From positions 1,248,001 to 1,312,000 of the forward strand of contig CAVXRD010000001.1 in NCBI GenBank assembly GCA_963764165.1: a stretch of DNA of 64,000 nucleotides, given 5' to 3'. Within the stretch, counting starts at the first letter, position 1. Each line of letters starts with the position of its first letter. Under the pieces are notes generated by a model. The model was not told where the DNA came from and ran no database searches. It saw only the letters and a list, made by a program, of their open reading frames with translations. This DNA is from an uncultured Verrucomicrobiae bacterium (GTDB taxonomy: Bacteria > Verrucomicrobiota > Verrucomicrobiia > Limisphaerales > Palsa-1400). Positions 701 to 26,503 of this stretch are shown piece after piece. A program made the position numbers and the translations under genes.

Positions 701-755
701 GCATTTTTTCTCCAAAAATCGTGCCGAAAAACCTCTGGTAGGTTTTCTCTTTTCA
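701..755 (+). promoter_or_regulatory. Conserved ~50-bp element with palindromic core AAAACCT-N5-AGGTTTT (copy 1)
   Basis: Reverse complement matches 23979-24026 at 44 of 48 nt. Confidence 0.65.
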
Positions 756-7715: not shown

Positions 7716-7732
7716 TTTGTGGCACTATAAGA

Positions 7733-8935: not shown

Positions 8936-8962
8936 CGCCTTATCTTACGAAGCGCAGCGGCA

Positions 8963-9165: not shown

Positions 9166-9310
9166 CGGCCGCGCAATCTGCTCCGACACCCCAGCAAGTT
9201 CATTGGCTCTTCTCACCAATTGTATTGGTCGGGGCCTCCTGCCGAGCCACGCCTACGCCGATGGCTCAGCAGCCTCGCCCTGCACGCAGTAACGCGCCAT
9301 CGCCGACTGT

Positions 9311-10371: not shown

Positions 10372-10386
10372 AATACAAAAGCTTTC

Positions 10387-10493
10387 AAGGTAGGGACGCC
10401 TCGCCGAGGCGTCCGGGGTGAGGCATTATTCTTGCGCGGGTCGCGGAAATTATTCACGCGCAACCGGACGCCTCGGCGAGGCGTCCCTACCTT
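10387..10493. repeat. Intact GTAG-type REP doublet inside the phage-like operon
   Basis: aaggtagggacgcctcgccgaggcgtccgg ... ccggacgcctcggcgaggcgtccctacctt. Confidence 0.85.
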
Positions 10494-10501
10494 AAAATCC
10501 T

Positions 10502-12928
10502 CTAGGATGTCTCCGTTGGCGTCGTGCATAGAATATAAAAGCTGTAAGTCTTCATGGTGGGCGTTCCACTCACGTTGACGCATTGGCTGTAGCTGACCTG
10601 CTGAAAATAAGCCTGCGCGTTCGACGGCAAATCCGCCGGGCTGATGCGGACGCACCCGCCCGCTGTGCCGCCGCTTCCCAATTGCAGATGGAGAATCGGC
10701 GCATTGGGAGCGCCCAAACCCGAGATGTTCCCGTAGTTCGGCTGCCCGCTGCCGCGAACATCGACGGTAAGGCCGGGATTGCCATGAGCGTAGGAATTCG
10801 ACGCCAAATCCGAGAGGCTCGCGGGAAAAATCTGCAAATCCGGCGCGCGGGTGCCCGGACTCGGGCCGCGCTGGGCGACGCTGTTGCCAAGTTGCGCGCC
10901 TGCCTGCTGATTCGCGTCATTGGTGATGTTCGAGCCGATGAAATAAATTTGCCGCGGCCCGCGATTCGCGCGCAACCGCTCCACCATGTCCCGCGCGCCG
11001 AGATGGGCGGCCGGCCCGAATCGGAGTGTCGTGCGTCCATTGGTCAAGTCGTAGGAAATTTGCTGGACGCATGCGTTCATCGCCGCCCATTCACTGCGCC
11101 CGCCGGAGATGTTGAGGTTGTTTCCCATTGGGCAGACATCGCTCACCTCGATTTCTTGGACGCTGAACGAGCCTTCGAATTGTGGAATTTTGGCGATGTT
11201 GTAAATGAATCCAGCCAAACCGTAGGGAACCACTTCGCCCTGCACAAATCCCGCCTGATGCTGATAAACGCCGCCAGGAATGCTCACCAGCGTCACGCGC
11301 GCCGTCTTCTCGTGATACGGAACGTGCGCTGTTTGAATCGAGCTCGATCCAACTTTGCTAACCTCGCTAATCACCCACTTCGCGTTAATCACCGCTTGAA
11401 CAACCTGGGCCGCTGTTCCAGACGGCGCATTGCCCGCCAGCATCCAGGGCGCGATCTGCCCGTCTGTCAACAAATACTGAAACGTGGAAAGATCCACCGC
11501 GTTTCCGTCATCGGCCCCGCCGGGATCATCCGCCGTCACGGAAACAGACGAGCCGGAGAACAGCGATGGCGTCGCGGCCAGCGTCTTGAATTCAGGAAAA
11601 ATCTTTTGCCAGAACGGAATGGCTGACGAATTTGAACTGGGATCAGCCGTGTTCACCGCCATCGTTTTGATGCTGCATTGAATCAGATTGCTGCTGTTTC
11701 CCTCCATGTCGATCGTCGCGGTGACGCCCGCGAAATCGCGCCCCGCCGCCTCCAGCGCCTGCATGGTGGCGCTGTTGGCGCTGCCGCCGACAAATGCGGG
11801 CGAACCGCCGAACGCGCTGGCGGCGGTGTAAAGCGCGCCTGTCAATCCTATTCCCTCGTAAGCCGCGCCGCTGACGGTTCCCGCGACATCGTGAACCACC
11901 TCCGTGTAAAGGCTTCCCGAGTTTGATCCTGTGATGCGGAACTTGAGCGCCACCGCGGATGGCGTGAGGTCATCGCGTTTCTTGATTCGGAAATTCTCCG
12001 TTGTGCCGACGAACGGCAAACTCACAGCCGGCAATTGGTCGCGCGTCGCAACATGCAACGTAGGCGGCGTGGTGGAGTAATCGAACCACACCAGCCCGTC
12101 GCCCATTGGCCCAATCCATTTTAGTTGCCGCCGCAGCGCCTCCGCGCAGGTTATATCGTTGACAGCGTCGAGCGGCGCGCGCAGCACCGTCCGCATGTCC
12201 GCCGCCGTCGTCCCCGTTTGCGCGCTTGTCTTGCCGGTGGCGGCGTAGCCTGGAATGTAATCGGGAATGAGAAGATTCGTGCCCGGCGTCACGTATAAAT
12301 CCCAGTTCGTCCCATCAATCGCCGAGGTCAGCGCGTCGGATTGCAATTGCGGCGACCCGTAATCAATCGTCGTCTGCCCGGCAACGTAAGCGATGATTTC
12401 GGCGATTTGCTGCCGGATCGACATCAGGTTGGTCGCGTTGCTGCCGGGCACCGTATCGTTGGGGCCGACGAGCGCATTCACGCTTTGCCCAAGCACGATC
12501 TGGCTCCGCCAATCCGCCACGTTGGCTGTTCCATTCCAAGTGAACCAGAGTTTTTGGAACACCAGGCGCTCAAAGAAAAATTCCCATGGCCCGGCGAATT
12601 TCAAATCGAACTTCTCCAGCGCCGGACTTCCGCTGCGAAAGGTTTCGACGCGCCAGCCAATGAACCATTGCGTCCCGCCAGTCCACGAGGTGTTGCCGCT
12701 CAACGGCAGACCGGCGGCGTTGGTTCCAGCGCCAGAGGATGGCGCGCGCCCGATTCGCAGGATGATTTTTCCACCGTAGGGAATCGGATCATCCGCGTCG
12801 GCTGGGAGCAGCAGTTTGCAAGCGAGGTGGTCGTGGGCCTGATTGCCAATCTCGCGCTCGCACTGGCTGATGTTCCAATCCGCCAGCGATTTTTCGACGC
12901 CGTTATACGTAAGTGTGGTGAAGGTCAT
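10502..12928 (-). CDS. Large putative tail hub/baseplate (Tal-like) protein, 808 aa
   Basis: Start MTFTTLTYNG; late VQQISYDLTNGRTTLRFG beta motif typical of hub proteins; position in tail module. Confidence 0.6.
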   Translation of the reverse strand: MTFTTLTYNGVEKSLADWNISQCEREIGNQAHDHLACKLLLPADADDPIPYGGKIILRIGRAPSSGAGTNAAGLPLSGNTSWTGGTQWFIGWRVETFRSGSPALEKFDLKFAGPWEFFFERLVFQKLWFTWNGTANVADWRSQIVLGQSVNALVGPNDTVPGSNATNLMSIRQQIAEIIAYVAGQTTIDYGSPQLQSDALTSAIDGTNWDLYVTPGTNLLIPDYIPGYAATGKTSAQTGTTAADMRTVLRAPLDAVNDITCAEALRRQLKWIGPMGDGLVWFDYSTTPPTLHVATRDQLPAVSLPFVGTTENFRIKKRDDLTPSAVALKFRITGSNSGSLYTEVVHDVAGTVSGAAYEGIGLTGALYTAASAFGGSPAFVGGSANSATMQALEAAGRDFAGVTATIDMEGNSSNLIQCSIKTMAVNTADPSSNSSAIPFWQKIFPEFKTLAATPSLFSGSSVSVTADDPGGADDGNAVDLSTFQYLLTDGQIAPWMLAGNAPSGTAAQVVQAVINAKWVISEVSKVGSSSIQTAHVPYHEKTARVTLVSIPGGVYQHQAGFVQGEVVPYGLAGFIYNIAKIPQFEGSFSVQEIEVSDVCPMGNNLNISGGRSEWAAMNACVQQISYDLTNGRTTLRFGPAAHLGARDMVERLRANRGPRQIYFIGSNITNDANQQAGAQLGNSVAQRGPSPGTRAPDLQIFPASLSDLASNSYAHGNPGLTVDVRGSGQPNYGNISGLGAPNAPILHLQLGSGGTAGGCVRISPADLPSNAQAYFQQVSYSQCVNVSGTPTMKTYSFYILCTTPTETS

Positions 12929-12996
12929 GTCTGGAATTTTTAAATTTGGGCCTTCCGCCGTCGCTCCGCTATGGCGCGACAAGCAGGAACGGAGCC

Positions 12997-14463
12997 TCAG
13001 GGCGCGGAGATCAAATTTGTGTGAGAGCCCGTGATCCAATACAACGCGCATGCGCCCGCGCCATTATTGGAACTCCAGAAAATTCCAGAGCCGGAAATGG
13101 CTGCGGGCGGCGTGGTTCCATTGGCGGGCATTACGATGTTATTTGACACGCCCAAGGTCCCGCTAACCGTGAGGGTGAAAGCGGGAGAGGCCGTGTCAAT
13201 GCCGACGTGGCCACTGTTGGTGGCGTAGAGGACAGATCCGCCGAAACCGGCATACTTTGTCATGTTCAAAAAACCAACCTGAGCCGGACTAAACTGCACC
13301 GTGGTGTTCGTTTGCGACGACCACGGCAACGTCGTTCCGCCCGCATTCGAGGGATAAAACGACAATTGCCACGTCAGCGGCTCATTATTGTAATAGGCGT
13401 AAACGTCTTCGCTCAGGGCTGGGCCGCTCGTTACATAGTAAAGGCCGCTCTGGTTGTAGTAGCTGTTCAGGAACGAGGTAAAACTGGAATTCGTTTGCGA
13501 TTGCAGAAAATATCCGCCCTCGCGAATTTGCGGCATGCCAATGTCCGGGTCGTAAAACCCGGTGCCATCGGGCAGGACGCTGACGCCGACGGAACCGTTG
13601 TTCATGACCGCTCCCGCGATGGACGAGCCAGCCTCCACGTAACCGACCGCAACGCCCGTCATGTTCTCCAAATAGATCGGATACCCTCCAGTGGGCAATC
13701 CGCCCGAAACAATCGTCAGCCCGTCGATCAGCCCCGCATTGCCCACGCCGCCTGTCAAAGAAACAGGACTTCCGCGCCCCGCAACGTAGCTTTCGGCCTG
13801 CACCGCGGTCATTCGCACATTGTTGAACGTGCCTGTTCCGGTGTGGGTGTAGACGGCGTTTTGCGCCCAATTGTCAATTATGCAGTTATTGAAGAACAGC
13901 CCGCTGGTGGTGCTGCCGGCGCCGCTTTGAAACTCAGGCTGCACGTCAACGGCATTCGTATAGCCGCCCGTGTCACCGTAACTGCCCCAGTCAAACGCGC
14001 CCCCGCCCGAGTTCAGAATTTGCCCGCCACCGGAGCCTTCCCAGCGAATCGCGCAGCGCGACTTATGAATGCCGCCGACGCCGCCGAGCGCCTCCCAGCC
14101 CGAATTCAGAATCGTCCAGCCACCCACGTCCACGTTGGCGAAGTTGTTGATGCGAATGCCGTCGCAATACCAGCGAATCCAGCTCAAGTTATATGCCTGC
14201 CAGCCCTGGCCCGCCTGGTAATCCACGCAGCGGTAGCCGCCGTCGAGAAGCACGTTGTTCCAATTGCAGCTCACCGCGCCGTTGATGCCATCGGCGTTCG
14301 TTGTCAAACAAACGAATGCGCCGGCGCTGGGCGGAGTGGCGTTCGTCCAGAATCCGGCGATGTTCTGAAACGTCAGGTAACTCCCCCTCGCCACAAAGCA
14401 ATTGAGGTGAGGTTTGTCCAAACGATGGCGGAAACCAATGTGTCCGGCTGGCCCAACGCCCAA
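12997..14463 (-). CDS. C-terminal part of a beta-helix tailspike-like protein (frameshifted from the upstream ORF)
   Basis: N/G/T-rich beta-helix-like sequence; C-terminal GHVGIDTASPAFTLTVSG fibre-like motif; no convincing start of its own. Confidence 0.65.
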   Translation of the reverse strand: MGVGPAGHIGFRHRLDKPHLNCFVARGSYLTFQNIAGFWTNATPPSAGAFVCLTTNADGINGAVSCNWNNVLLDGGYRCVDYQAGQGWQAYNLSWIRWYCDGIRINNFANVDVGGWTILNSGWEALGGVGGIHKSRCAIRWEGSGGGQILNSGGGAFDWGSYGDTGGYTNAVDVQPEFQSGAGSTTSGLFFNNCIIDNWAQNAVYTHTGTGTFNNVRMTAVQAESYVAGRGSPVSLTGGVGNAGLIDGLTIVSGGLPTGGYPIYLENMTGVAVGYVEAGSSIAGAVMNNGSVGVSVLPDGTGFYDPDIGMPQIREGGYFLQSQTNSSFTSFLNSYYNQSGLYYVTSGPALSEDVYAYYNNEPLTWQLSFYPSNAGGTTLPWSSQTNTTVQFSPAQVGFLNMTKYAGFGGSVLYATNSGHVGIDTASPAFTLTVSGTLGVSNNIVMPANGTTPPAAISGSGIFWSSNNGAGACALYWITGSHTNLISAP

Positions 14464-15104
14464 GACCCGGCGCCATCACCGAGGATGGTCAGGTTCGCGT
14501 TCGTGATAATAATATTTCCGCTGACTTTGTATTTTCCGCGCGGGAAATAAATGGCGCCACCGTTTCCCGCCGCCGCCATCGCGTTGGAAATGGCGGCGTT
14601 GTTATCGGTGACCCCGTCCCCGACGCCGCCTGTGGAAGTGATGTTCACATAGCTGGCAATCGATACAGGAACCCACGCGGCGCCATTCCATTCCAGCACC
14701 TGGCCCGCGGCCGCGCCTGATTGCGTCAACGCCGAGGTCGGAAGATTGGTCGCGCCAGAAATATTGCCGCTGACGATCGCAAGGTTTGTCGCGATTTGTC
14801 CGCTGGTGGTGGCATTGGTCAAGTAAGTATTCGTGCCAAAACCACCGAAGGGCGCAATTCCCGAACCGCCACCCCCACCCCCTCCGCTGAATCCAGCCCG
14901 GGTCAGCGCGTTGGTCAGCGGCGTGATATTCGTGTCAAAGAAATTGGTTTCGTTGGGCGGAATGGCGTTATTCGTATTGACGACGAATACTTTGTTGGTG
15001 GAAATCTGCGCCGAAGCGGGATAATCCATGGCGGCGAATAATAAAATCGCGAATAGAATGCGGAATGCGGTTTTCATTTTGGTCGGAAGTTTGAGCGGGT
15101 TCAT
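14373..15104 (-). CDS. N-terminal part of a tailspike-like protein with signal peptide and pectate-lyase-3-like motif
   Basis: MKTAFRILFAILLFAAMDYPASAQ; GQVLEWNGAAWVP; GGVGDGVTDNNAAI...IYFPRGKY. Confidence 0.7.
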   Translation of the reverse strand: MNPLKLPTKMKTAFRILFAILLFAAMDYPASAQISTNKVFVVNTNNAIPPNETNFFDTNITPLTNALTRAGFSGGGGGGGSGIAPFGGFGTNTYLTNATTSGQIATNLAIVSGNISGATNLPTSALTQSGAAAGQVLEWNGAAWVPVSIASYVNITSTGGVGDGVTDNNAAISNAMAAAGNGGAIYFPRGKYKVSGNIIITNANLTILGDGAGSWALGQPDTLVSAIVWTNLTSIALWRGGVT

Positions 15105-15108
15105 TTTC

Positions 15109-15735
15109 TTAGTATCCTTGGTCTGAGAGTTGGAGGGTCAGGACGCCGCCGTCGTTTAGAATCGACAGCGTATGATAAAGTCCAGTGGTGGCATCGAGCA
15201 GTTGCGGGACAATCCGCCCCGAAACAGTCGTGTAACGCAATCCGGCCAGGGGCGGAGCGCTGGCGCTGGTGGCGGGGCCGTCCTTCACCGTAAGCGGGCC
15301 ATTCAAAATGGTGATGTTCTTGGCCGGAGAATCAGTCGTCTGGGCCGTGATGCGCAGCCAATAGTTGACGCTGGCCAGCCCGCCGAGGCTAATGGCCGTC
15401 TGGCTATTCGGGAACAAGAATGCAGCGTGATAAAACGGCGTGGTATTGCCGTTCCACTCACTTTGCGTCAGCGACAAATTCATGCTCGCGGCCGCGACAA
15501 AGCAACTCAGCATCGGCGGGTTGGAATCGTTTTCCGCCGCAAAAATTTGCGCGGTCACGGAGGCGACATTCGACAGCGAGGTGAGCAGGGCGCCGTTTTG
15601 GCCCAGGCCGATGTCAATTTCGATGTCGTCGCCGCGATAAAACGAGGGCGGCTGATTGCCGCGATTGAGATCAATAAGATTGCCCGGCGCGGCGACGTCG
15701 CACAGCAGCCGGATGGGAAGAGGTGTCAATGCCAT
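15109..15735 (-). CDS. Putative baseplate upper protein (BppU-N-like)
   Basis: FYRGDDIEIDIGLGQNG...LSNVASVTAQI and ILNGPLTV pattern; position before the spike gene. Confidence 0.5.
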   Translation of the reverse strand: MALTPLPIRLLCDVAAPGNLIDLNRGNQPPSFYRGDDIEIDIGLGQNGALLTSLSNVASVTAQIFAAENDSNPPMLSCFVAAASMNLSLTQSEWNGNTTPFYHAAFLFPNSQTAISLGGLASVNYWLRITAQTTDSPAKNITILNGPLTVKDGPATSASAPPLAGLRYTTVSGRIVPQLLDATTGLYHTLSILNDGGVLTLQLSDQGY

Positions 15736-15769
15736 ATGTCAATAATAGGAATTTTTGGGGTGATGGAAA

Positions 15770-16240
15770 TTACGGGCTGGTCTGCCACGCGCCGTTGCCG
15801 CAGATCGAATAGGTGATGTTGCAGGCAACTTCCTGGTGCGCCACACACGCCACCGATTCCACAACGGCATTCGGCAAATAGCGCGTGATCAATCCAGTGC
15901 CGGATTGGTTGTAAATCGTGATTTCGCCCTGCACCGGAACGCTGTCTGGATGAAACAGAATGAAGGCCAGGCAGGCCTCCGCCGTTTGAAACGACCGCTG
16001 CGCCGTAAAGGCAAAGCGGTTTTCAAGGTTGTAGCGGGGAATGTTCGAGAGATAGGCCGCCCGGAACAGCGGTGCTTTCTGGATGATCCGCTTTTGCTGG
16101 TTGAGGCAGCCTTCCTTGACCTGCCCTCCAGCGCCGCTGGAGAAATTCGTCGAGGGCGCCGAACCGCTAATAAGGCGGATGCTGTCATCGGCCAGGACAA
16201 ACGGCACGGAACCGCCAGAGGGGGTGATGGTGATTTTCAT
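15770..16240 (-). CDS. Hypothetical tail protein (distal-tail position)
   Basis: 156-aa beta-rich ORF coupled to the upstream gene; assignment by position only. Confidence 0.5.
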   Translation of the reverse strand: MKITITPSGGSVPFVLADDSIRLISGSAPSTNFSSGAGGQVKEGCLNQQKRIIQKAPLFRAAYLSNIPRYNLENRFAFTAQRSFQTAEACLAFILFHPDSVPVQGEITIYNQSGTGLITRYLPNAVVESVACVAHQEVACNITYSICGNGAWQTSP

Positions 16241-16521
16241 GTTTGGCTGAAGTCCGCAAAGAATTGCACGGCGTCGCGCATTTCCAATTGGGAGACGTTT
16301 GGATCCGAGTTGAGCCGGAGACGGAGACGGCGCAACGCCTGCGCCTCAATCGCCCGAATCATCGCCGGCGTGCAATCGCACCAGGCGGCAATTTCACCCG
16401 CGCTGTGAGTCGCGCGAGGTTTGGCTGCGGCGGACAAAATCGCCAGGCCCAGGTCGATGCGCCTGCCTTTCCGTCCGTTGCGAATCGGCGGCGAATCCAC
16501 GTTTTTGTGATCGTGCGTCAT
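16237..16521 (-). CDS. Small sigma70 region 4-like helix-turn-helix protein
   Basis: HSAGEIAAWCDCTPAMIRAIEAQALRRLR resembles the TLEEIG...RVRQIEAKALRKLR pattern. Confidence 0.7.
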   Translation of the reverse strand: MTHDHKNVDSPPIRNGRKGRRIDLGLAILSAAAKPRATHSAGEIAAWCDCTPAMIRAIEAQALRRLRLRLNSDPNVSQLEMRDAVQFFADFSQT

Positions 16522-16524
16522 GGT

Positions 16525-17460
16525 TTATGCGAGGGTTAAGGCCGCCCGGGATGGAACGCCGCCGCTGGCGATGTTAAGCGTGCTGACCCACCCCAATTCG
16601 CCCACGCGCAACGGGCGCCCGCCAAAGACGTATCCCGCCGATTTCAACGCCGCGTTGCCAAGGGTAATGGTGATGCTGCTGCTGCCCGAAATCACGAGAT
16701 TGGCTGAATTCGTTGACAGCCGGTAACCGCCCGCGGCTCCCGTTCCCTGCGCATACAGCGCCGCGTCAATTTGCGCCGCCGTCGGCCCGAGCGGTTTGCA
16801 TTTGGCCATCACGCGGCAGCTCGCCAGCTTGAACGCGCGCGTCCGGCCTTGAATGGTCACCGGCTCCAATTTCAGTTCGTGGCTGATCGTCCATTTATCC
16901 TGCGCTTGAAAGCTCGTGAATCCCGCGATGCTTCCCCACGCCGCCGTGAATTCCTGCCGCCCGAGGACAGCCGTGCCGGGAACGGCGGGATTGCTGAACG
17001 ACTGGCCTGTTTGCAGCGTGTAATAGCTATTGGCGGAACTCGCGTTCTGGCCGTTCGCAATGACGCCCCAAATTTCCATGCGGCCCAGCACCGGCCCTTC
17101 GACGCCGAGTTCCAGGTCCGGCATTTTGCCGACCAGCGCGCTCGTCAGCGCGACGACATCGCCGTTGTTGCTGTTCCACGCGCAAGCCACGTCGGAACTG
17201 CCGGGAAAGGACGTGCCGACCGTGGCGGAGACATACGGGAACATGGTCGCCAGCGCAGCCGTATCGTAGAAGAGCGGGCGGCCTTGGGCTTTGACGACCA
17301 TGTCCCGATAAATTTCGTCCACGTCGCCGTAAAGCGAAGTGGCAACAACGTCGGTGACGAGCGCTGTTTCGACGGTGGAATCCTCGGCAAATTGAATATT
17401 CTGGCCATTAAAGGCCGCGTAAGCCGGACCGCCGGCAAGTTGGGATCGGGTGACACTCAT
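16525..17460 (-). CDS. Putative major tail tube protein
   Basis: 311 aa, A/G/S/T-rich, N-terminal LAGGPAYAAFNG; follows the neck genes. Confidence 0.6.
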   Translation of the reverse strand: MSVTRSQLAGGPAYAAFNGQNIQFAEDSTVETALVTDVVATSLYGDVDEIYRDMVVKAQGRPLFYDTAALATMFPYVSATVGTSFPGSSDVACAWNSNNGDVVALTSALVGKMPDLELGVEGPVLGRMEIWGVIANGQNASSANSYYTLQTGQSFSNPAVPGTAVLGRQEFTAAWGSIAGFTSFQAQDKWTISHELKLEPVTIQGRTRAFKLASCRVMAKCKPLGPTAAQIDAALYAQGTGAAGGYRLSTNSANLVISGSSSITITLGNAALKSAGYVFGGRPLRVGELGWVSTLNIASGGVPSRAALTLA

Positions 17461-17493
17461 AAATTGTGTATAGTTGACATGTGTTGGATGGGT

Positions 17494-18213
17494 TTAATTG
17501 ACGACGAACGTATCGATCATGCTTCCCTGCAAAGCGCCGTTGTAAGCCGCCGTGCGGACAGTCGTGCCGCCTGCGACGCTGAACGGCGTCGTGTACAAAG
17601 TCGCATTAGGATTTCCCGCCCCGGGGAAACTCGCGTCCGTGGTGTAAAAAATGGCGGAGCCGCCGCCCGGCTGCTGGTCCGAAAGCGTGACCGTGCCCGC
17701 ATTGGCGCTGGCGCCCGGAATGATCGTCCGCGTGAGCGCGGTTAACGCAAACGTCGCGCGCAGCGTCACTGCCAGGGCAATGAAGGGCGAATCTGCGGGA
17801 GTCGAAACGTATTCATAAAACGTGGGCGCGGCGTAAAATCCTTGCAGCGCCCCGCCGAGGAAAAACAACTGAAACGTCTGGGCCAAATTCACCGCAATTT
17901 GTTCGGCGCTAAGCCCGGTGCCATTTGCGCCCTGGTTCACAGTTGGCTGCTCCTTCACGAGAAATTTCTGCTCCAGCGTGCAAACCGGCCCCGCTGTATC
18001 CGGCAAAGCGGATTTCAACGCGGGCATCAGAACTTCGATCGACGCCCCGCCCTTTCCGTTGCGTCCCGAAAATCCCGACAAGGCGCGGCTGACTTCGGTG
18101 TCCATTCGTTTCTCGCGCACTTTGAAAATGGCGATGCTTTGGAACCATGGCTCGGAGAGCAGCTTGTAATAGACGTCCGGCTGGACGGATTCGATTTGGG
18201 CGGCAAGGCTCAT
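17494..18213 (-). CDS. Putative tail terminator/neck protein with a C-terminal FN3-associated (CHB_HEX_C-like) domain
   Basis: C-terminus VTLSD...IFYTTDASFP...LYTTPFSV...VRTAAY. Confidence 0.6.
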   Translation of the reverse strand: MSLAAQIESVQPDVYYKLLSEPWFQSIAIFKVREKRMDTEVSRALSGFSGRNGKGGASIEVLMPALKSALPDTAGPVCTLEQKFLVKEQPTVNQGANGTGLSAEQIAVNLAQTFQLFFLGGALQGFYAAPTFYEYVSTPADSPFIALAVTLRATFALTALTRTIIPGASANAGTVTLSDQQPGGGSAIFYTTDASFPGAGNPNATLYTTPFSVAGGTTVRTAAYNGALQGSMIDTFVVN

Positions 18214-18237
18214 ATTGAAAATGGGAAAATGGGTCGA

Positions 18238-18684
18238 TTAGGTTTCGCCGAGCTTGTCAAATGAATGCGTTGAAACGCGATGGCCCCGGCGAATGGCCTC
18301 CACCCGGAAACTAGGGCCGGTCACGTTCTGCGGATTGGCGGGAATCTCCACCTTCTCGCGCCCTTCGCGAATTTTCTCCATGCGCTTGACAGATTCGTCG
18401 TATTGGGCGCGCCGGAAATCGCTCTGCAAATCCGTCTTGGGCAGGCTGCAAAACCACTTCCAGCGAACCATTGCAATGGCGTCGGAGCGAATCTGGTCAG
18501 GCACGGTTCCGACTGGCCCAATCTGGTTTCCGCCGACCAGGATGCCCGCCTGAATTTCAGCGGTGATGGTCGCGAGGATGGTCGAAAGGATCGACGAGCT
18601 TCCCTGAATCGTGTTCAGCATCGTGACTTCGTCCGGGAGGATTTCCGCCGTGACGTCAGCGGCGGCAAGTGTGTTCCAAGGCAT
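18238..18684 (-). CDS. Mu gp36-like (DUF1320) head-tail connector
   Basis: Helical 148 aa with VPDQIRSDAIAMVRW and AQYDESVKRMEKIREG; follows the capsid genes. Confidence 0.7.
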   Translation of the reverse strand: MPWNTLAAADVTAEILPDEVTMLNTIQGSSSILSTILATITAEIQAGILVGGNQIGPVGTVPDQIRSDAIAMVRWKWFCSLPKTDLQSDFRRAQYDESVKRMEKIREGREKVEIPANPQNVTGPSFRVEAIRRGHRVSTHSFDKLGET

Positions 18685-18706
18685 AAGCAATTTTGTTGAG
18701 GTAAGG

Positions 18707-18748
18707 AGCGCCGGCGCGGAAGGATGGGATGGTTGCCGCGCCGGCGCT
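18707..18748 (-). terminator. 13-bp GC-rich hairpin after the head genes (partial terminator or mRNA stabiliser)
   Basis: agcgccggcgcgg (18707-18719) and ccgcgccggcgct (18736-18748); weak U tract. Confidence 0.5.
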
Positions 18749-18757
18749 GTTGGTTGG

Positions 18758-19273
18758 CTAAGGCGTGATGCTGGCTTGCAGCGTGAGGTTAATGTTGCTG
18801 ATCGCGCCGTTGGAAACGGACGTGATGCGGAAAGCCGTGGCCGGCTCCCACAGGCTCGTCGCGATGTTCGTCGCGGCGGTGACCTGGTTCGTGCCGTTCA
18901 ACGGGAACGTCCAGATAAACGGCGTAGTGGTGGTGAAGTTTGTGCCGTAACGGCCGTTGATCGCGGCCGGATTTCCGCCCGCGCTGTCGTAGGCGAAATC
19001 CACCTTCACGGTGACGTTGCTCAAGGCAACGTTGTTCGTTGTCGTCACGGTGGCCCACAATCCGATCGGATGCGAACCGCTGTAAGCGAGGAACGTGTTG
19101 GTAGAAGCGGCAGCCTGGAACAACTGGTTGCTGGTGAGCGTCTGGCTGGACACCAGCGTGTAAATGCGCGGCGTCACCTGGGTGGTGACCTGCGCAGCCG
19201 CGCGGCGCATTCCGGCGGCCAGCATGGCGGACGTGGCGAGAAGGACCAAGCCCTTCTGAATGAATCTTTTCAT
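18758..19273 (-). CDS. Signal-peptide-bearing beta-rich protein directly after the major capsid gene
   Basis: MKRFIQKGLVLLATSAMLAAGMRRAAA-Q; Thr/Asn-rich mature part. Confidence 0.75.
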   Translation of the reverse strand: MKRFIQKGLVLLATSAMLAAGMRRAAAQVTTQVTPRIYTLVSSQTLTSNQLFQAAASTNTFLAYSGSHPIGLWATVTTTNNVALSNVTVKVDFAYDSAGGNPAAINGRYGTNFTTTTPFIWTFPLNGTNQVTAATNIATSLWEPATAFRITSVSNGAISNINLTLQASITP

Positions 19274-19296
19274 ATTCGTGTTTCGATTTAAGAGTT

Positions 19297-20364
19297 TTAG
19301 TTGACTGTGATTTGCTGAATTCCAGTGGTGTGCTGCACGTGCAGGAACTCGTAGTTTTCGACCGTGAGGGCGATGAGCTTGACGCCGACATCGGTGACAT
19401 AGACGGCGTAATCGCCCCCGCCGTAAGCGGAGTTGGCGACGTGCCGCACGAGGTTGCTCGAGTCCATCGGGCCGTCGGCTTCGATGCTGGTGAACAGCAT
19501 GACGTTGCTGCCGATGATTTCCTGCTTGGCCGTGCCGGTGGATTGCTGGTAGCGCTCGGCGTTGATGATGCAGCGATCCACACCGATGGCAGTGGCCACC
19601 TGCTCTTCCGTGAATTGCCCCGCTCGCGCCAGCGCGCCGGCGGTGAGCTGTGTCTCGTAGGCGTTCTGGCGCTTGAGCGCGGCCTGATCACCGTAAACGG
19701 CGACCAGCGGATAGAAGCCGGTGGTGTTGGCCAGGTTGATGATGTCCTGCTTCAATTCCAAATCAGGATTGCTGCCTGTATCCCAAATGGTGGAGGAAGT
19801 GATGGCTGCGGCTTGCAGAAGCGAAACCGCTTCCAGCACAGTGGCGCGCATCATCAAGTCCAGCAGCCACTTGGTGTGGACCTGCTGCCATTCCGGCTTA
19901 TCCTTGAGCTGGTCGCGGTCCAGCAGCACGGTCAAACCGCGATTGGGCACCTGCAAATCCACCTTCGTGGCGACGCGCTGGCGCACGCGCATGAAGTCGG
20001 ACAGGATGCTGCGTTTGACACGCGTGTAATCCACGGTCTGCCACGGCTCGTTTTCGTCGTAAACTGTCAAGCGCACGATGCGGCTGTTGCTGGGGCGCGG
20101 CGGGGCCAGCGTGTCGCGCAATTGGCGGAGGCGGTTGCCGACCATGCCGTCGTAGCTGATGGCAAAGGCGGTCAATTCCTCGATGTATTCGGACTGCCGG
20201 AGCAGCGAATCGTTGGCCAGGCAAACCTGCCCGTGATGCGCGCCGACGTTGTTGGAGGAAATCGCGTTGGGGGCAAAATCGTTGCCCAGCGCGACTCCGA
20301 GGGATTCCAACGCCGCCACGCGGGCGGAATTGGAGAGGACGATGGGGTCTTTCATAGTTGTCAT
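19297..20364 (-). CDS. Putative major capsid protein
   Basis: About 355 aa; canonical position after protease and decoration genes; ends GIQQITVN; NRGLTVLLDRD. Confidence 0.7.
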   Translation of the reverse strand: MTTMKDPIVLSNSARVAALESLGVALGNDFAPNAISSNNVGAHHGQVCLANDSLLRQSEYIEELTAFAISYDGMVGNRLRQLRDTLAPPRPSNSRIVRLTVYDENEPWQTVDYTRVKRSILSDFMRVRQRVATKVDLQVPNRGLTVLLDRDQLKDKPEWQQVHTKWLLDLMMRATVLEAVSLLQAAAITSSTIWDTGSNPDLELKQDIINLANTTGFYPLVAVYGDQAALKRQNAYETQLTAGALARAGQFTEEQVATAIGVDRCIINAERYQQSTGTAKQEIIGSNVMLFTSIEADGPMDSSNLVRHVANSAYGGGDYAVYVTDVGVKLIALTVENYEFLHVQHTTGIQQITVN

Positions 20365-20375
20365 GGAGTGATGTG

Positions 20376-20864
20376 TTATTGGGTGATCGAGTAGGGGAAG
20401 CACGGGATGAACGGGATGTCCAATCCGCCAGCCCCAACAGTCTTGGTGGCGCGGCCGATGACCCAGAATGTGCCGTGCCCGGCAGTTGTGAGGTCGCCGA
20501 CGTAACCGTTGGGGGCCGAGTAGACGAGATTGTCAATCGTGACCGATCCCACCGAAACGCCGAGCTGCATGCCGACGGTGGCGCCAAAACGCTCGATGTC
20601 GAAGAAGTCGCCCAATTGGTAAGGGGCGTCCGGCGACACGCCAAGCGGCATGCTGGTCCCGTCCGCGACCGCGGCGTAATATTGGCCGGAACCGCGCTTG
20701 TAAACCAAATACTTGCTCGTGACGGGCAGCGAACTGCCCGGATCGATCTGGAGCGATTCGCGCCCGTGTTCGAACACGCCGCCCAATTCGTTGGCCAGGG
20801 CAACAGGCTCCGGCCCGGCGAAAAATGCGGCGGGGTTCAGGATGAATTTCAGGAATTTTCTCAT
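20376..20864 (-). CDS. Putative head decoration/capsid cement protein (DUF2190-like)
   Basis: PLGVSPD, DNLVYSAPNGYV, WVIGRATK pattern; precedes the capsid gene. Confidence 0.65.
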   Translation of the reverse strand: MRKFLKFILNPAAFFAGPEPVALANELGGVFEHGRESLQIDPGSSLPVTSKYLVYKRGSGQYYAAVADGTSMPLGVSPDAPYQLGDFFDIERFGATVGMQLGVSVGSVTIDNLVYSAPNGYVGDLTTAGHGTFWVIGRATKTVGAGGLDIPFIPCFPYSITQ

Positions 20865-20907
20865 AGGTAACTTTTTTCTGTGGATATTTTTGGTGTTCGT
20901 TTCTGGG

Positions 20908-21165
20908 TTATTTCTTTGCCGCCTGGTTTCGGGCAGCTTCGAATTCACGCTGCCGCTTTATGACGGCGATGGCCTGCTCGCGGCGCAAACCGCGCGCCAT
21001 TTTTTCGCCGATGATGACCTCGTCGGCCTCGGCTTGTTTCTTGACAGCCTCAAACTGCGCGATGCGGGCTTTGAGGATGGCGTTCTCGGCCGCCAGATCG
21101 CCGGCGGCGGGCGGCGGCGTGGCTGCCGCGGTGGATGGTGCTGATGATGGAGTTTCTTTTGGCAT
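20908..21165 (-). CDS. Small coiled-coil hypothetical protein (scaffold-like)
   Basis: 85 aa: LAAENAILKARIAQFE, GLRREQAIAVIKRQ. Confidence 0.6.
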   Translation of the reverse strand: MPKETPSSAPSTAAATPPPAAGDLAAENAILKARIAQFEAVKKQAEADEVIIGEKMARGLRREQAIAVIKRQREFEAARNQAAKK

Positions 21166-21181
21166 AGGTGGATCGGTTGAA

Positions 21182-22381
21182 TTAACGGGCCCGCAATTTT
21201 TCGGCGAGGCCGGGGTTGCTGCTCATTACGGCGTGGTGCGCCTTGACGGGATCGGTCTCGCCGCTTTCCTTCATGTGGCGCTCGACGGAGGCGCAATACT
21301 CTTCGCGCACGTCGCCGCTGGCGCGGTGGTTGGAGAGAATTTTTCCACTTTCGGCGCACGCCGTCGTTTTGAAGCGGGCGGGAGCGTCCAGCAAGCTGGC
21401 TGATTCGCGCTCGAAATCGGCTGCGTTTTCCAGCGCCTGAAGACGTGTGGAGCGTTCGGACACGGCCACTTTGCCGCGAGCAATCGCCAAGTCGACGACT
21501 CCGGCGGCACGCTGCGATTTCACCTGCGCGATTTGCGTTTTCAAGCCGTTCGCCTCGTTTTCAAGCGCGGCGGCAGCGGACTTCAAATTCGCGACTTGCG
21601 ATTTGAGATCCTCGTTTTCGCCGGACAGGGTTGCATTCTCGTTGCCCAGCGCCGCGGCCTCGCCGGCGGCGGAGGCGTGGAGCTTTTGCAGGGCTGCGAG
21701 AACCTCGGGTTCGGCCGGGCTGTCGGGATGGGCGAGAGTCGCGCCATTGGCCAGCAGCCAGCCTGCGATGAGTTTCATTTCGGGTTCTTTTGTTGGGATG
21801 TTTTCTTCGGTTGCACCGGCGGGTCTGGCGTTGGCCAGCGATTCCACGCCGGAAATGTTGGGATGGGCCGTCAGGCCCGCGGACAAAAGCTTGAAGGGCC
21901 GGGCCAGAATGGCGTTGCCGCGCCGCCCCATCGGCTGGACATACCAAAGCGCGCTGGGATATTTGCATCCGTCGCGCTCAACGGCTTCGGCGCCGGCAGG
22001 CGTCAAGACGAAATGCGCCTCCAGCCCGCGCTCGGATTTGCGCACCTTGTCGATGGCGCCGATGATTTCCTTCTTCCCTGCGCGCTCCGTCGAATTGGGC
22101 GAGAAGTCCGCCAGATCAGGATGGCCTTTGTAGACCGGAATGCCGATCACGGCGCGGCGAATGCGGCGGAAGAGAGAATTCTCGCGGGAAAGAAGCTGGT
22201 CGGCCGATTCGTGGTCGAGAACCTGGATGAAGTGCTCGCGCTCGATTCGCCCATCTTTTCGGACGAGGCGCGACTTGGGATGCTCGCCAAAGGGCGCAAT
22301 CAGCGCCCAGCCTTCGTCGTCAAGTGAGTATTCATTTGACAGAATGGTCATGTGTTGGGTCATGGGTAAATTCGGGTTCAT
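21182..22381 (-). CDS. Mu-like prophage I protein (prohead protease plus scaffold)
   Basis: WALIAPFGEHP, PVYKGHPD, KYPSALW, LLSAGLTAHPNI, followed by a coiled-coil scaffold. Confidence 0.85.
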   Translation of the reverse strand: MNPNLPMTQHMTILSNEYSLDDEGWALIAPFGEHPKSRLVRKDGRIEREHFIQVLDHESADQLLSRENSLFRRIRRAVIGIPVYKGHPDLADFSPNSTERAGKKEIIGAIDKVRKSERGLEAHFVLTPAGAEAVERDGCKYPSALWYVQPMGRRGNAILARPFKLLSAGLTAHPNISGVESLANARPAGATEENIPTKEPEMKLIAGWLLANGATLAHPDSPAEPEVLAALQKLHASAAGEAAALGNENATLSGENEDLKSQVANLKSAAAALENEANGLKTQIAQVKSQRAAGVVDLAIARGKVAVSERSTRLQALENAADFERESASLLDAPARFKTTACAESGKILSNHRASGDVREEYCASVERHMKESGETDPVKAHHAVMSSNPGLAEKLRAR

Positions 22382-22389
22382 TGCTTTGG

Positions 22390-23835
22390 TTAGGCGGCTT
22401 GGTTTGGAATCGAGTAACCGAGCGCCGGCTCAGTCGCATGCGAACTGTAGAAGCCCGCTTCGTCCACCTGCGGATCCGGCATGTCCGGATTGGCGGTCTG
22501 CGGCTCGCGCCGGGCGTCTGCGCCGGGCGCGATAGGCGTCGCGCTGGAAGAAGCGGCCGGGAGCGAGTGCGTTTCGCGGGGATGGCCGGTTGTATCGCCC
22601 TCCTCCCGGCCGTGGGGTCGGGGGTTGCGGGGAAATTCGAGGCACGGCTCGCCGGGCGCTGGCGGCGTCCAGCGGAAGCGCTTGTAAGCTTCCTTCAAGC
22701 TGATGCGAAGGCCCATCGGCACCAGCGCCTGGGCGCACTGCAAATCCATCGCCGCCGAATCGTCCTGCGGCGCGACCACCGCCATCCAGGCCCGCGGCTC
22801 TCTGTCAAATAGGTAACGGATTACGGGACGGTCAACGCGGTCGTTCAAAATTTCTGAGGCCCAGGCGGCGTCGCGGGCGAGGAAAATTCCGGATTCCTCT
22901 TTTTGCACGCTCGCGCCAACGACGTTTCGCCCGGATTCGCGGCTGCCAGTGGCAAGATCGACGCCGCGATAACATTTGGCGTAAAGGCGATTGACCAGTT
23001 CCACCAGAGGCGCGAACGGGAGGGTGGCGGCGGCGGGAATGCTCGAAAATTTAATGTTTAGGTCAGGGTTGTGAATGACTTGTCCATCGTTGGCCAATTC
23101 ATTCAACACCTGGCGGGCTTCCTCCCACGCAGGATCGCCCTTTTGCGCGCTCGTGACGGCCTCGACAAAACCAGAGCCGTAGCGGGCGTTGAACAACAGC
23201 CAGTCGCGCAGGGAAAGCGACTTCAAGACAAACGCCATGCTGAGCGAGCGCATCAGCCCCTGCCCGACCGCCGTCAGCCATTCCCCTTGCAGGCAAGGCT
23301 CGCCGTAGACGTCAAATATATGTTTGAGATAGCCAAGATAGCCGCGGCGGCTCTCGAAGAACCAAATGGGCGTGTGGCGGAATTCGGCGGTCACCTCGCG
23401 CGCGGCGGGATTATCCACCCGCAGCAGCATTTCGTGGACGCTATAATAATGCGAGTGCGCGGTGGCGAGCTGGTAGAGCAGTTCGCTCACGCCGCCCGAG
23501 GAATCCTGGTCCAGCGCCCGGGTGGTGCGCAGATGGCGGTAGAAATACTCGAGGGCCTGGGCGTGGCGGTCCCCTTCCGGGCTGCCGTCGGAAACGATCT
23601 GCCAATCAAGCCCGGCGAGGTCGGAGGCGCGCTTGTCGGCATTGGCCGAAAGCTCGCCGTCCCGTTCAATCATGGTTTCCCATATTTTGCCGACAACGCG
23701 CAATTCGCCGATGCGGAAGGCGTTGAGGTTGGAGGAAATCCAGTCCATCGAAATGTTCGGCATCGGCGAGTAGCGGAGCCGGATGGCCCATTCGATGCGG
23801 GCCTGGTCAAATTGAGATGCGCCACTGAGGTTCAT
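22390..23835 (-). CDS. Mu gp29-like (DUF935) portal protein
   Basis: WETMIERDGELS, LAGLDWQI, GQGLMRSL, RDWLLFNARYG. Confidence 0.85.
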   Translation of the reverse strand: MNLSGASQFDQARIEWAIRLRYSPMPNISMDWISSNLNAFRIGELRVVGKIWETMIERDGELSANADKRASDLAGLDWQIVSDGSPEGDRHAQALEYFYRHLRTTRALDQDSSGGVSELLYQLATAHSHYYSVHEMLLRVDNPAAREVTAEFRHTPIWFFESRRGYLGYLKHIFDVYGEPCLQGEWLTAVGQGLMRSLSMAFVLKSLSLRDWLLFNARYGSGFVEAVTSAQKGDPAWEEARQVLNELANDGQVIHNPDLNIKFSSIPAAATLPFAPLVELVNRLYAKCYRGVDLATGSRESGRNVVGASVQKEESGIFLARDAAWASEILNDRVDRPVIRYLFDREPRAWMAVVAPQDDSAAMDLQCAQALVPMGLRISLKEAYKRFRWTPPAPGEPCLEFPRNPRPHGREEGDTTGHPRETHSLPAASSSATPIAPGADARREPQTANPDMPDPQVDEAGFYSSHATEPALGYSIPNQAA

Positions 23836-23945
23836 AGTGTGTTCGGGTAGCGGTTGGATGAGCCCAGCGCGGGGATTCGGGCCGCCTGCAGTTCGTTCTG
23901 CCGGCCGCGCGTTTCGCGTTGAGCTTTATGTTTCATGCTCGTCAT
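23832..23945 (-). CDS. Short 34-37 aa ORF translationally coupled to the portal gene
   Basis: MTSMKHKAQRETRGRQNELQAARIPALGSSNRYPNTL; its TGA overlaps the portal ATG. Confidence 0.4.
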   Translation of the reverse strand: MTSMKHKAQRETRGRQNELQAARIPALGSSNRYPNTL

Positions 23946-23972
23946 TACGCAACGAGTGAAACATGCATTTAT

Positions 23973-24026
23973 TGAAACAGAAAACCTACCAGAGGTTTTT
24001 TAGCACGATTTTTGCAAAAAAAATGC
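23973..24026 (-). promoter_or_regulatory. Conserved ~50-bp element with AAAACCT-N5-AGGTTTT core (copy 2), upstream of the phage-like operon
   Basis: Palindrome at 23981-23999; inverted near-copy of 701-755. Confidence 0.65.
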
Positions 24027-24167
24027 ACTTTTTTGCCCCTAAGTCCCATTTCTTGATGCAAGCGCACTTAAAAAAGGGGACAGAAAATGAAAAAGCGGGG
24101 GGGGTTGGCTTTTTTGCGGCGGTTTTTCGCAAAAAGAATGATTTTCTGCCGATTCTTAAGTGCGGCG

Positions 24168-24212
24168 ATGGGAAGAATGGGAATGATGTGACTAATGGGA
24201 TATATGGGACAA
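24168..24212. repeat. Degenerate 9-bp tandem repeat (ATGGGAnnn x5)
   Basis: atgggaaga atgggaatg atgtgacta atgggatat atgggacaa. Confidence 0.65.
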
Positions 24213-24274
24213 TACCAATTCAGGGACGCGCGAAACGGGCCTCGGCCTCTTTTCCTGAGTTCGGGCGTTCCTGA

Positions 24275-26503
24275 TTAAAACCTCTTCTTCGGCGCGAAGC
24301 GCCGCAAGCGCAGTGCGTTTCCCAGCACTATCAAATCGGAGAAGCCCATCGCCGCGGCGCACAGAATTGGGCTGAGAAATCCCAAGGCAGCCAGCGGGAT
24401 GGCGGCGGCGTTGTAGAAAAAGGCCCAGAATAAATTTTGCCGGATTGTTGACAGCGTGGCGCGGGCCTGCCGCAAGGCTTCCGGCACGGCTTCGATTCCG
24501 GAATTTAATAGCACCATGTCGGCTGCTTCGCCCGCAATGTCGCTGGCGCGGCCAACTGCGATGCCAAGGTCGGCCTGCTCCAGCGCGGGAGCGTCGTTGA
24601 TGCCATCGCCGACGAAAGCGACTTTCTCGCCTTGCGACTGGAGCTTGCGCACGAGTTCCGCTTTGTCGGCGGGTTTTATTTCCGAGTAAACCCGATCTGC
24701 GGCAATGCCGGCTTGCTTCGCGATGGTGGCGGCGGCGCGCAGGTTGTCTCCCGTCACCATGAAAACGCGCAACCCGCTGTTTTCCAACTCGCGCACTGCA
24801 GCGGCGGAGGCTGGCTTCACGGTGTCTTTTAACGCCAGCAGCGCGAGCAATTCTCGATCCCGCGACAAGCCTAGAATAGTCGCTCCTTGCTCGCTCCAGC
24901 TTGCGATGAATTCGGAATTTTCGGGAATTGGAATCCCGCATTGCCGAAGCCACGCCATTGAGCCAAGCCGCGCCAAGCTGGAAGCGGACACCTTCGCCTC
25001 GACGCCTGAGCCAATGACTTCGCGCCAATCAGAAAGCTCAATTGCGTCAAAATCCAATTTAGCGACAGCGCGGCTGAACGGATGTCGCGATCCGCGAGCG
25101 AGCGCGGCGGCCAGCGGCAGTTTGGCGCCTTCCGTGGCGGCCACCGCCGGTTCTCCTTGCGTGAGAGTTCCGGTTTTATCGGCGAGGAGGACGGTTATTT
25201 TGCCCGCTTTCTCCAGCGCAATTCCGTCGCGAATCAAAATGCCGTGCCGGGCGGCGACGTGCGCTGCAACCATCAACGCCGCTGGCGTGGCCAATCCCAT
25301 CGCGCATGGACACGCGACAATGAGCACGGCAACCGCGTTTAGAATCGCGGCGGCAAGCGGTGAGCCGTGGATGTGCGGCTGCCAAAGAAAATGACTCATC
25401 CACTCGCCGAGGGCGCGGGCGCGTTCAGGCGCAAGACCCCACCAAAGTCCCGTCGCAATTGCAACTGAGACGACAATGGGAACGAAAACGCTGCTGACTA
25501 TGTCGGCCAGCCGTTGAATGTCAGCGCGGCTGTTTTGCGCGCGCTCAACAGCGGCTACAATTCGCGCCACCGCCGTTTCCTCGCCGACGGCCGTGACCTC
25601 GGCATAGGCATGGCCGTTGACGTTGAGCGTTCCGGCGTATATTTGACTGCCAACATCCTTTTCAACTGGCACCGATTCACCCGTCAGCATCGCTTCGTCG
25701 ACGCTGCATTGCCCGCGCAGCAAGCGTCCGTCGAGAGGGATCCGGTCGCCGGGGCGCAGGACAATTTGATCGCCGGGGCGCAATTCAGAAACGGGCGCAT
25801 CGGTTTCACTGCCGTCCGCCCGGGCGCGCCGCGCGGTGGCGGGAGCGAGCGCGAACAGCGAGCGCATGGATTTTTCCGCGCGGCCGCTGGCGCTGGCCTC
25901 GAACCAATGGCCGATGCTGATGAGCGTGATGATCGACGCCGCTTCCATGAAGCAGAGACGCCCCCTCGCGCCCGCGAATAGCTCGTAAACGCCAAAACCG
26001 AATGCGGCAGTGGAACCCAGCGCCACCAGCGTATCCATGTTCGAGCGCCCCGCTTTGATCTGCTGCCACGCGCCTTTGTAAAATCTTGCGCCGCCGAAAA
26101 TTTGCAGCGGCAGCGTGAGAACAAATCCAGCCCAATGAAACCAGCGTTTATCGCCGAGATGAAAAATCCATTCGCCAACCATTAACGGGATTGTCACGCA
26201 AAGACCGCCGATAACGTTGACGCGCCATCCATCGAGAGAAGATTTATTTCCCGGCTTCGTTTCGGGCGAAACAGCTTTGGCCTCGAAGCCGGCGGCTTGA
26301 ACTGCGCTTGACAGGGCGGAAATATCGGGAGTCATGTCGGCGCGCCAATGCACCCGCGCCCGGCCGTCCTGCAAGGACACGCTGGCGCTGGCGACGCCAG
26401 CCACACTTTGCAGGGCGTCGGTGGCATTTCGGGCGCAATTGGAGCAGGTCATTCCGGCAATGAGCAACTCGCTGCGAGGCCCGGCTTGAATGGCGGATGC
26501 CAT
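24275..26503 (-). CDS. copA: Copper-translocating P1B-type ATPase
   Basis: HMA GMTCSNC, TGES, CPC, DKTGT, GDGINDAP, TM7 YN and TM8 MxxS motifs. Confidence 0.93.
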   Translation of the reverse strand: MASAIQAGPRSELLIAGMTCSNCARNATDALQSVAGVASASVSLQDGRARVHWRADMTPDISALSSAVQAAGFEAKAVSPETKPGNKSSLDGWRVNVIGGLCVTIPLMVGEWIFHLGDKRWFHWAGFVLTLPLQIFGGARFYKGAWQQIKAGRSNMDTLVALGSTAAFGFGVYELFAGARGRLCFMEAASIITLISIGHWFEASASGRAEKSMRSLFALAPATARRARADGSETDAPVSELRPGDQIVLRPGDRIPLDGRLLRGQCSVDEAMLTGESVPVEKDVGSQIYAGTLNVNGHAYAEVTAVGEETAVARIVAAVERAQNSRADIQRLADIVSSVFVPIVVSVAIATGLWWGLAPERARALGEWMSHFLWQPHIHGSPLAAAILNAVAVLIVACPCAMGLATPAALMVAAHVAARHGILIRDGIALEKAGKITVLLADKTGTLTQGEPAVAATEGAKLPLAAALARGSRHPFSRAVAKLDFDAIELSDWREVIGSGVEAKVSASSLARLGSMAWLRQCGIPIPENSEFIASWSEQGATILGLSRDRELLALLALKDTVKPASAAAVRELENSGLRVFMVTGDNLRAAATIAKQAGIAADRVYSEIKPADKAELVRKLQSQGEKVAFVGDGINDAPALEQADLGIAVGRASDIAGEAADMVLLNSGIEAVPEALRQARATLSTIRQNLFWAFFYNAAAIPLAALGFLSPILCAAAMGFSDLIVLGNALRLRRFAPKKRF

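Follow-up and report, generated by a model that had tools for sequence, protein, structure and literature searches.

The heads of tailed phages are taken to be completed in the cytoplasm, and the locus described here raises the question of what a protein with a Sec-type leader does in a head operon. In a 64,000-nucleotide stretch of DNA (hereafter, the window) from a Verrucomicrobiota genome, the gene directly following that of the major capsid protein (18758–19273, on the minus strand, as are the other module genes given below) encodes a 171-aa protein, SP171, which we regard as an exported, predicted single-jelly-roll protein and a candidate accessory of the capsid surface. A preliminary description had proposed that the protein is exported, possibly glycosylated at N-x-T sequons and either joined to the particle at or after release or used to anchor it to the envelope. 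Export was well supported by our analysis, and the glycosylation and anchoring parts were not. The description had also left out the enrichment of Thr-Asn, the leaders of the tail fibres and the terminase-less, apparently vertically inherited nature of the module.

The module and its leader-bearing head gene

The first gene of the module encodes a Mu-type portal (22390–23835; PF06074, phrog_113) and is followed by genes for a Mu I-like prohead protease/scaffold (21182–22381; PF10123, phrog_328), a conserved 85-aa head-region protein recognised by synteny (20908–21165) and a 162-aa protein without a family match that, from its position only, is likely to be a cytoplasmic head decoration protein (20376–20864). 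The next gene (19297–20355) was assigned to a lambda gpE-like major capsid protein, which is 83–92% identical in 10 related genomes. This protein has no match in Pfam or PHROGs or among 50,697 GenBank phage records, and the assignment is based on Atlas features (0.98), on PF03864, found on 12% of one cluster, and on the position between the Mu portal/protease and Mu gp36 genes. L-[ASGE]-N words, which are possible cut sites of the prohead protease, recur near the N-termini of the capsid and decoration proteins and in the protease/scaffold (19297–22381), and also in phage contigs.

The SP171 gene starts 24 bases past the stop codon of the capsid gene, and the gene for a Mu gp36-like head-tail adaptor comes next (18238–18690; PF07030). 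The hairpin that had been reported beyond SP171, a gene placed within the head block, is real: it is GC-rich, has a 13-bp stem and lies at 18707–18748 (minus strand; −28.8 kcal/mol, z −4.65). A similar hairpin is located directly 3' of the capsid gene in G013, a relative without SP171. The window hairpin lacks a coding-strand U-tract and did not register as an intrinsic terminator; it is likely to be an mRNA stabiliser or attenuator that closes a highly expressed head segment. No Rfam match was obtained within 9000–24400.

The tail region contains genes for a likely tail terminator of 239 aa, identified by position and carrying a C-terminal Fn3-like domain (17494–18213; PF13290/PF13287), and for a likely 311-aa tail tube protein, identified by position and synteny and without a family match (16525–17460), followed by three small genes (94, 156 and 208 aa; 15109–16521) recognised as open reading frames and by synteny. 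Next is the N-terminal part of a tail fibre or tailspike (14373–15104); it contains 11 Thr-Asn pairs and starts with a Sec-type leader, and its continuation lies in another frame (12997–14394), a split relative to a 1363-aa homolog on contig C4 of the source genome. The C4 homolog is continuous, and a further paralog is present on C4 at about 479800–483100. A large conserved protein resembling a tail tip or hub (10502–12928; position and synteny, no family match) and two Cys-rich genes (248 and about 107–121 aa; 9311–10371) end the module, and host genes then begin. Neither an endolysin gene nor one resembling a tape-measure gene was recognised in the module. The expected tape-measure slot (12928–13050) is also empty in the tail of a prophage on C4; it is filled by a low-complexity ORF of 200–250 aa in genera g6 and g9 (L021:16948–17709) and by one of 460 aa in two phage contigs (L076:19276–20658).

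As had been stated in the preliminary description, SP171 starts with a basic stretch (K2, R3 and K7) followed by a hydrophobic core (residues 8–21) and an AAA (25–27)/Q28 site. We assigned residues 1–27 (19193–19273, minus strand) to a putative Sec/SPI-type signal peptide on the basis of this sequence and the leader architecture of homologs. Our heuristic leader caller placed the earliest possible cut at 21; however, the homolog alignment favours cleavage at 27/28, with Q28 invariant in 14 of 14 sequences and the leaders diverged. (Leader calls and genome-wide gene calls were made by our own heuristics throughout.) By sequence and heuristic class, the mature part has no lipobox, no Cys and no second hydrophobic segment; the RR at residues 23–24 is not conserved across homologs, and there is no Tat consensus. 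Tat and lipoprotein leaders were thus ruled out by sequence and alignment, and a wrongly placed start codon was also rejected because 43 homologs begin alike.

A word search found 13 relatives among 124 candidates, in which the leaders vary in sequence and length and the mature part and Gln28 are kept. A full HMMER scan yielded 31 matches of 33–245 aa, 27 of which were retrieved. The resulting alignment, A3, has 44 rows, one for the mature query and 43 for full-length members, with 5 near-identical proteins and 4 fragments left out. In all 43 full-length members (one of them without its start), the mature part is preceded by a hydrophobic core, with 9-residue hydropathy peaks of 1.9–3.6, and by a small-x-small site, and Pro8 and Arg9 of the mature chain are nearly invariant. 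At the 29 metagenome loci, several of which duplicate each other or the genome loci, a leader is present in all 26 homologs having a 5' end; the capsid gene lies upstream at 23 loci, the other 6 starting too near a contig end, gp36 lies downstream at 26, and the homolog adjoins one or the other gene at every locus. One metagenome locus (L160:122–1196) shows the order SP171 homolog, decoration-like gene, gp36. The leader character is kept while the sequence diverges, from the source genome to phage contigs, and we conclude that SP171 is very probably exported to the periplasm.

The capsid protein gave a match in 12 of the 31 family genomes and none in the other 19. The named relatives are Verrucomicrobiota MAGs, one of which is labelled Limisphaerales, and one record bears the label of another phylum. 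Of the 10 relatives in which the region is assembled, 9 have the SP171 gene between those for the capsid protein and gp36, and it is single-copy in the genomes searched; the profile search found no SP171 in the genome of G013. With a dN/dS of 0.27–0.68 (an approximate value, with synonymous sites near saturation), it is the least constrained head gene, and its product is closer to that of G023 (67%) than to those of its own genus (38–47%). Seven IMG/VR loci carry the capsid gene at 62–64% identity. In all five IMG/VR phage contigs examined, the post-capsid slot holds a leader-bearing, Thr/Asn-rich protein that ends in TP (two found by tblastn match, three assigned by position and alignment); profile A2 gave no match in viral contigs. 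Among the more distant loci of the order that were listed, a leader-bearing gene also follows the capsid gene in G109 and G068; comparison of the G109 protein with SP171 gave E 0.024 and a probability of 2%. In the listed Mu-like loci of G074 and G235, gp36 directly follows the capsid gene.

SP171 is not the only structural gene with a leader. The first fibre genes bear leaders in 7 of 7 relatives, as does that of the window (14373–15104), and so do fibre genes in phage contigs. In Cellulophaga phage phi10:1 (KC821618), gp091–gp094 are annotated as structural proteins detected by MS/MS, and all four have Sec-type leaders, whereas the capsid and adaptor proteins of this phage have none. A cultured phage thus provides a precedent for exported virion proteins, in its tail region. 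These proteins resemble SP171 as leader-bearing structural proteins, but they belong to the tail region of a Bacteroidota phage and are depleted in Thr-Asn (0.34-fold over five leader-bearing proteins of this phage). Our searches, at title and abstract level, found no publication on exported head proteins of tailed phages. In the second prophage of the source genome, on C4 (L038:997–3411, 7436–11527), the likely capsid protein opens with a hydrophobic leader-like segment, the product of the post-capsid gene has a Thr/Asn-rich domain and, internally, a segment resembling a leader, and the fibre is leader-bearing. No homology between the C4 post-capsid protein and SP171 was detected, and it was discarded as a homolog.

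Predicted fold and surface chemistry of mature SP171

An initial structural model built from 14 rows was weak (pLDDT 58) and was replaced by a model of the mature protein from the 44-row alignment (pLDDT 87.5, pTM 0.82), a beta-sandwich with a short N-terminal arm. Mature SP171 (144 aa) is thus predicted to be a single jelly roll of ~140 aa. The structural matches of the model include the IBDV VP2 spike domain (Z 10.1, rmsd 3.4, 119 aligned), PNGase F (Z 10.0), XepA (Z 8.7, rmsd 4.0, 109 aligned), 4-1BB ligand (Z 8.7), baseplate or tail jelly rolls (9f4b, Z 7.8; 9occ, Z 7.3) and a capsid chain of phage 7-7-1 (9hz8_G, Z 7.6, rmsd 4.6, 116 of 135). PNGase F, TNF ligands and carbohydrate-binding modules score at least as high as decoration proteins, 9hz8_G staying below Z 8, and Foldseek searches of PDB and BFVD returned only generic jelly rolls. 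SP171 has no Pfam, PHROG or PDB sequence match and no sequence link to any named cement family. The jelly roll is a common fold and no proof of function, and Z values of 7–7.6 for this predicted structure are within the common-fold range.

The 135-aa capsid chain in PDB 9HZ8, gp002 of phage 7-7-1, is described as a decoration protein (PMC12796354). Together with cyanophage Pam1 7eel_H and BPP-1 Bbp16 (PF21190), it is like SP171 in size (~135–145 aa), in its capsid-adjacent gene and in its jelly roll, with likeness scores of Z 7.6 for the 7-7-1 protein, Z 7.0 with the weaker model and an Atlas score of 0.88 to a cluster with 11% Bbp16. SP171 differs from all three in its conserved Sec-type leader and Thr-Asn-rich surface, and no sequence homology to them is detectable. 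Decoration proteins of this type are cytoplasmic. The PBSX protein XepA (PDB 6i56), a member of a lysis cassette, is a prophage-encoded jelly roll described as exported, but it has 276 aa, and the SP171 gene lies in a head operon and specifies a presumably cleavable leader.

The four sequons on which the proposed glycosylation was based (NVT86, NFT112, NGT126 and NLT162) are present in SP171. However, their number does not exceed chance (2.5 expected from shuffles, P = 0.22), each is kept in just 8–19 of the 44 family rows, the family-wide ratios are 1.12-fold for N-x-T and 0.9-fold for N-x-S, and Asp or Glu occupies position −2 in none of the four. N-x-T is slightly raised in exported host proteins (1.18-fold versus 1.07-fold), which would favour N-glycosylation by PglB/STT3; yet STT3/PglB was found in none of the 31 family genomes searched, 18 of which are at least 90% complete, with four control genomes positive. 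We therefore rejected N-x-T glycosylation on the grounds of chance-level count, weak conservation and the lack of a match for the enzyme. The companion proposal, that SP171 tethers the particle to the envelope, is not supported by the mature part described above, which has no anchor segment, and we consider N-glycosylation or tethering very improbable.

A different bias was found. Thr-Asn occurs 300 times in the SP171 family versus 110.5 expected (2.7-fold), and Ser-Asn 150 times versus 61. In 659 host proteins with heuristically called leaders, Thr-Asn is similarly frequent (3719 versus 1715, 2.17-fold), whereas 910 charged cytoplasmic host proteins show no excess (418 versus 444, 0.94-fold), and five leader-bearing proteins of phi10:1 contain 7 versus 21. 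The count in SP171 alone is not significant (5 versus 2.6, P = 0.09), and three Thr-Asn sites are kept in 34–41 of the 44 family rows. The leaderless portal, protease, decoration, capsid, gp36 and terminator proteins contain no Thr-Asn, ~4 being expected in all. In leader-bearing host proteins, Lys and Arg are ~five-fold depleted two residues past the Asn of Thr-Asn. In the simplest reading of these sequence biases, Thr-Asn is a candidate motif for a lineage-specific periplasmic modification; our literature searches, again of titles and abstracts, found no publication on such a motif.

A terminase-less module and its second locus

The module (23835–9311) is flanked by a copper ATPase gene and genes for host enzymes, and no terminase, integrase or transposase gene is present at it. 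ORF listings show that 10 of 11 relatives have host-type genes, not a terminase gene, ahead of the portal. The remaining one, G024, has lysis-like genes, TerS and TerL before the portal and host genes further up; an intact prophage was rejected for this genome, in which an HTH gene, itself preceded by host genes, is followed by the unsplit late operon alone. In the source genome, a second module lies amid host genes on contig C2 (about 560200–564280; L039:12080–16280) and consists of genes for a lipoprotein, a small exported protein, a class 3 lipase, a holin-like protein, a 90-aa protein, a TerS-like protein and TerL, the last with both terminase domains. The lipase is leaderless and occupies the slot expected for an endolysin, and lipase-like genes are similarly placed in relatives and phage contigs. 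Of the 10 split genomes, 9 encode a TerL homolog at a separate locus (62–77% identity; 88% for a fragment), G013 gave no TerL match, and the TerL sequences of genus g1 are monophyletic (0.97).

Capsid identity across four genera (83–92%) is similar to that of DnaA (81–90%), and the dN/dS values of the two are also similar (0.055–0.087 and 0.04–0.09, approximate because synonymous sites are near saturation); other module genes have values of about 0.07–0.3. The portal, protease and capsid genes and the separate TerL gene are all under purifying selection. The module tree recovered g1 (93), g6 (100) and the g10 pair (100) and set G024 and four phage contigs apart (100). The tree of DnaA, a single host marker, recovered g1 (93) and g6 (96), and G024 is discordant in the module tree; the module tree thus largely follows the host genera. 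The flanking genes vary between genera and within g1, and the capsid gene is broken in G026 and G030.

A copy of a dispersed intergenic element lies about 160 bases before the portal gene (23950–24030, minus strand). All 11 genomes have the element before the portal, as do 10 of the 11 metagenome loci with that region, and it also precedes the terminase module in the source genome and 7 of 8 relatives; it is absent from the phage-locus stretches compared. The source genome carries 45 core copies, so that a promoter specific to the module was rejected, and strict matches are all intergenic (15 of 15, versus 0 in a 3-Mb simulation). From its sequence and placement, the element is a candidate promoter or regulator site. 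It is ~110–130 bp long, with an ATG about 47 bases past the core; another window copy lies at about 700–790 (plus strand). The variants of the element seem to be specific to each genome, which would suit concerted evolution.

Verrucomicrobiota Mu-like phages (IMG/VR L071–L077) share with the window module the head gene order and the leader-bearing post-capsid gene, but in them a terminase-like gene adjoins the module, additional genes follow gp36 (Mu F in L071) and the stretches compared lack the intergenic element. In the order, remnants with head genes only and orphan terminase pairs occur commonly. The orphan TerS-TerL pairs of genus g4 (L050, L051, L055, L066 and L067) form a clade of their own and come from genomes without a match to this capsid protein, and family f86 has portal-to-capsid remnants. 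In the small g55 genomes, seven of which match, the three loci read (L097:12285–14262, L098:2289–4370 and L109:7553–9573) contain only a hydrophobic gene, a decoration-like gene and the capsid gene amid host genes, possibly representing domestication of the capsid alone as a nanocompartment.

Possible role of SP171 and nature of the particle

The reading that we favour, with a probability of roughly 0.55 for the mechanism as a whole, is that SP171 is an exported, cleaved protein that docks on the capsid surface at lysis, on a particle similar to a gene transfer agent (GTA). The Sec-type leader would direct SP171 to the periplasm, where it would be cut between Ala27 and Gln28. Cleavage may free the conserved N-terminal arm, Q-x-T-T-x-V-x-P-R, as a capsid-binding arm, an idea that we draw from the head-spike base of the Rhodobacter capsulatus GTA (RcGTA), Rcc01079, a jelly roll described as gripping the capsid by its N-terminus (PMC7296036). 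Modification at Thr-Asn by some host envelope system would be the reason for the periplasmic detour, and SP171 would dock outside the finished head only once lysis mixes the compartments. The particle itself would be the product of a domesticated Mu-like late operon that now occupies two loci, portal to tail in the window (23835–9311) and lipoprotein, lipase, holin-like protein, TerS and TerL on C2.

A virion-surface role of SP171 is plausible in view of the fixed synteny and the predicted jelly roll, and the capsid surface would be its likely place. Its fixed post-capsid position, its co-occurrence with leader-bearing fibres and its Thr-Asn bias, similar to that of exported host proteins, argue for this placement, whereas the probable decoration gene already present before the capsid gene and the slots without SP171 in G013, G074 and G235 argue against it. 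Because G013 has lost it, SP171 would be an accessory part. Such loss and the fast evolution of the gene would also suit an envelope protein that is exported with the late products and never enters the particle. Such a protein might block a receptor, serve as a decoy, work as a lectin or take part in lysis in the manner of XepA, which among phage-derived structures matches the fold best; jelly rolls that bind carbohydrates reach similar scores. We consider this unlikely, as the SP171 gene occupies the capsid–gp36 slot at 29 of 29 metagenome loci, is single-copy and lies inside the hairpin-bounded head segment, and the lysis-like genes form a cassette of their own before TerS. That SP171 is part of the neck or tail, or serves exported fibres as a periplasmic adaptor or chaperone, appears improbable: the fibres are the other leader-bearing proteins, jelly rolls are known in baseplate and tail parts, and a head-tail adaptor gene comes next, but SP171 is grouped by gene order and the hairpin with the capsid gene, at a distance of five genes from the fibres, and G013 has a leader-bearing fibre without SP171.

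For the particle, we see an even chance that the module works as a GTA. A multi-locus layout and purifying selection are described as traits of GTAs (PMC5026251). The alternatives, namely part of a cryptic prophage, a DNA-free particle acting as a decoy or like a bacteriocin, or an element dependent on a helper such as the C4 prophage, together fall somewhat short of even odds. The variable flanks, the patchy presence (19 of 31 genomes unmatched), the broken capsid genes, the missing TerL match in G013 and the unsplit G024 weigh against a GTA, and the lack of a recognised tape measure or endolysin, the many other Mu-like remnants in the order and the C4 prophage tail-tip genes, which are 60–83% identical to those of the window module, are in keeping with the alternatives. 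On the other hand, purifying selection on the portal, protease, capsid and separate TerL genes, the monophyly of g1 TerL and the same intergenic element before both modules point to DNA packaging having been kept.

If the module does encode a GTA, RcGTA offers a close comparison: it likewise has phage-derived genes at multiple loci under purifying selection, forms a group apart from phages and, as outlined in PMC7296036, bears a jelly-roll head appendage that attaches through its N-terminus. The window system differs in the unrelated origin of its Mu-like portal/protease and gpE-like capsid and in having its terminase in the second locus; the SP171 gene, unlike that of Rcc01079, lies inside the head operon and encodes a probably exported protein. 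A more far-reaching version, in which a split Mu-derived GTA of Limisphaerales has its whole outer surface, SP171 and fibres, exported, modified in the periplasm at a lineage-specific Thr-Asn motif by a host system not described so far, and attached at lysis to particles built in the cytoplasm, is doubtful; if true, it would mean two-compartment virion assembly and a particle dressed in host-type surface chemistry.

A jelly-roll capsid accessory protein and a split GTA-like element are known kinds, and what is new here is the exported variant and the Thr-Asn signature. No GTA of Verrucomicrobiota was found in the literature, searched at title and abstract level, and the locus is a candidate for one in this phylum, which is abundant in soil and peat. 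In this lineage, exported proteins may carry a modification motif not described before, as the Thr-Asn bias suggests. If our reading is true, a conserved exported protein of the head operon, together with exported fibres, would add a periplasmic maturation step and a lysis-time docking step to the assembly of such particles and would account for leader-bearing phage genes of a class that is at present set aside as morons.
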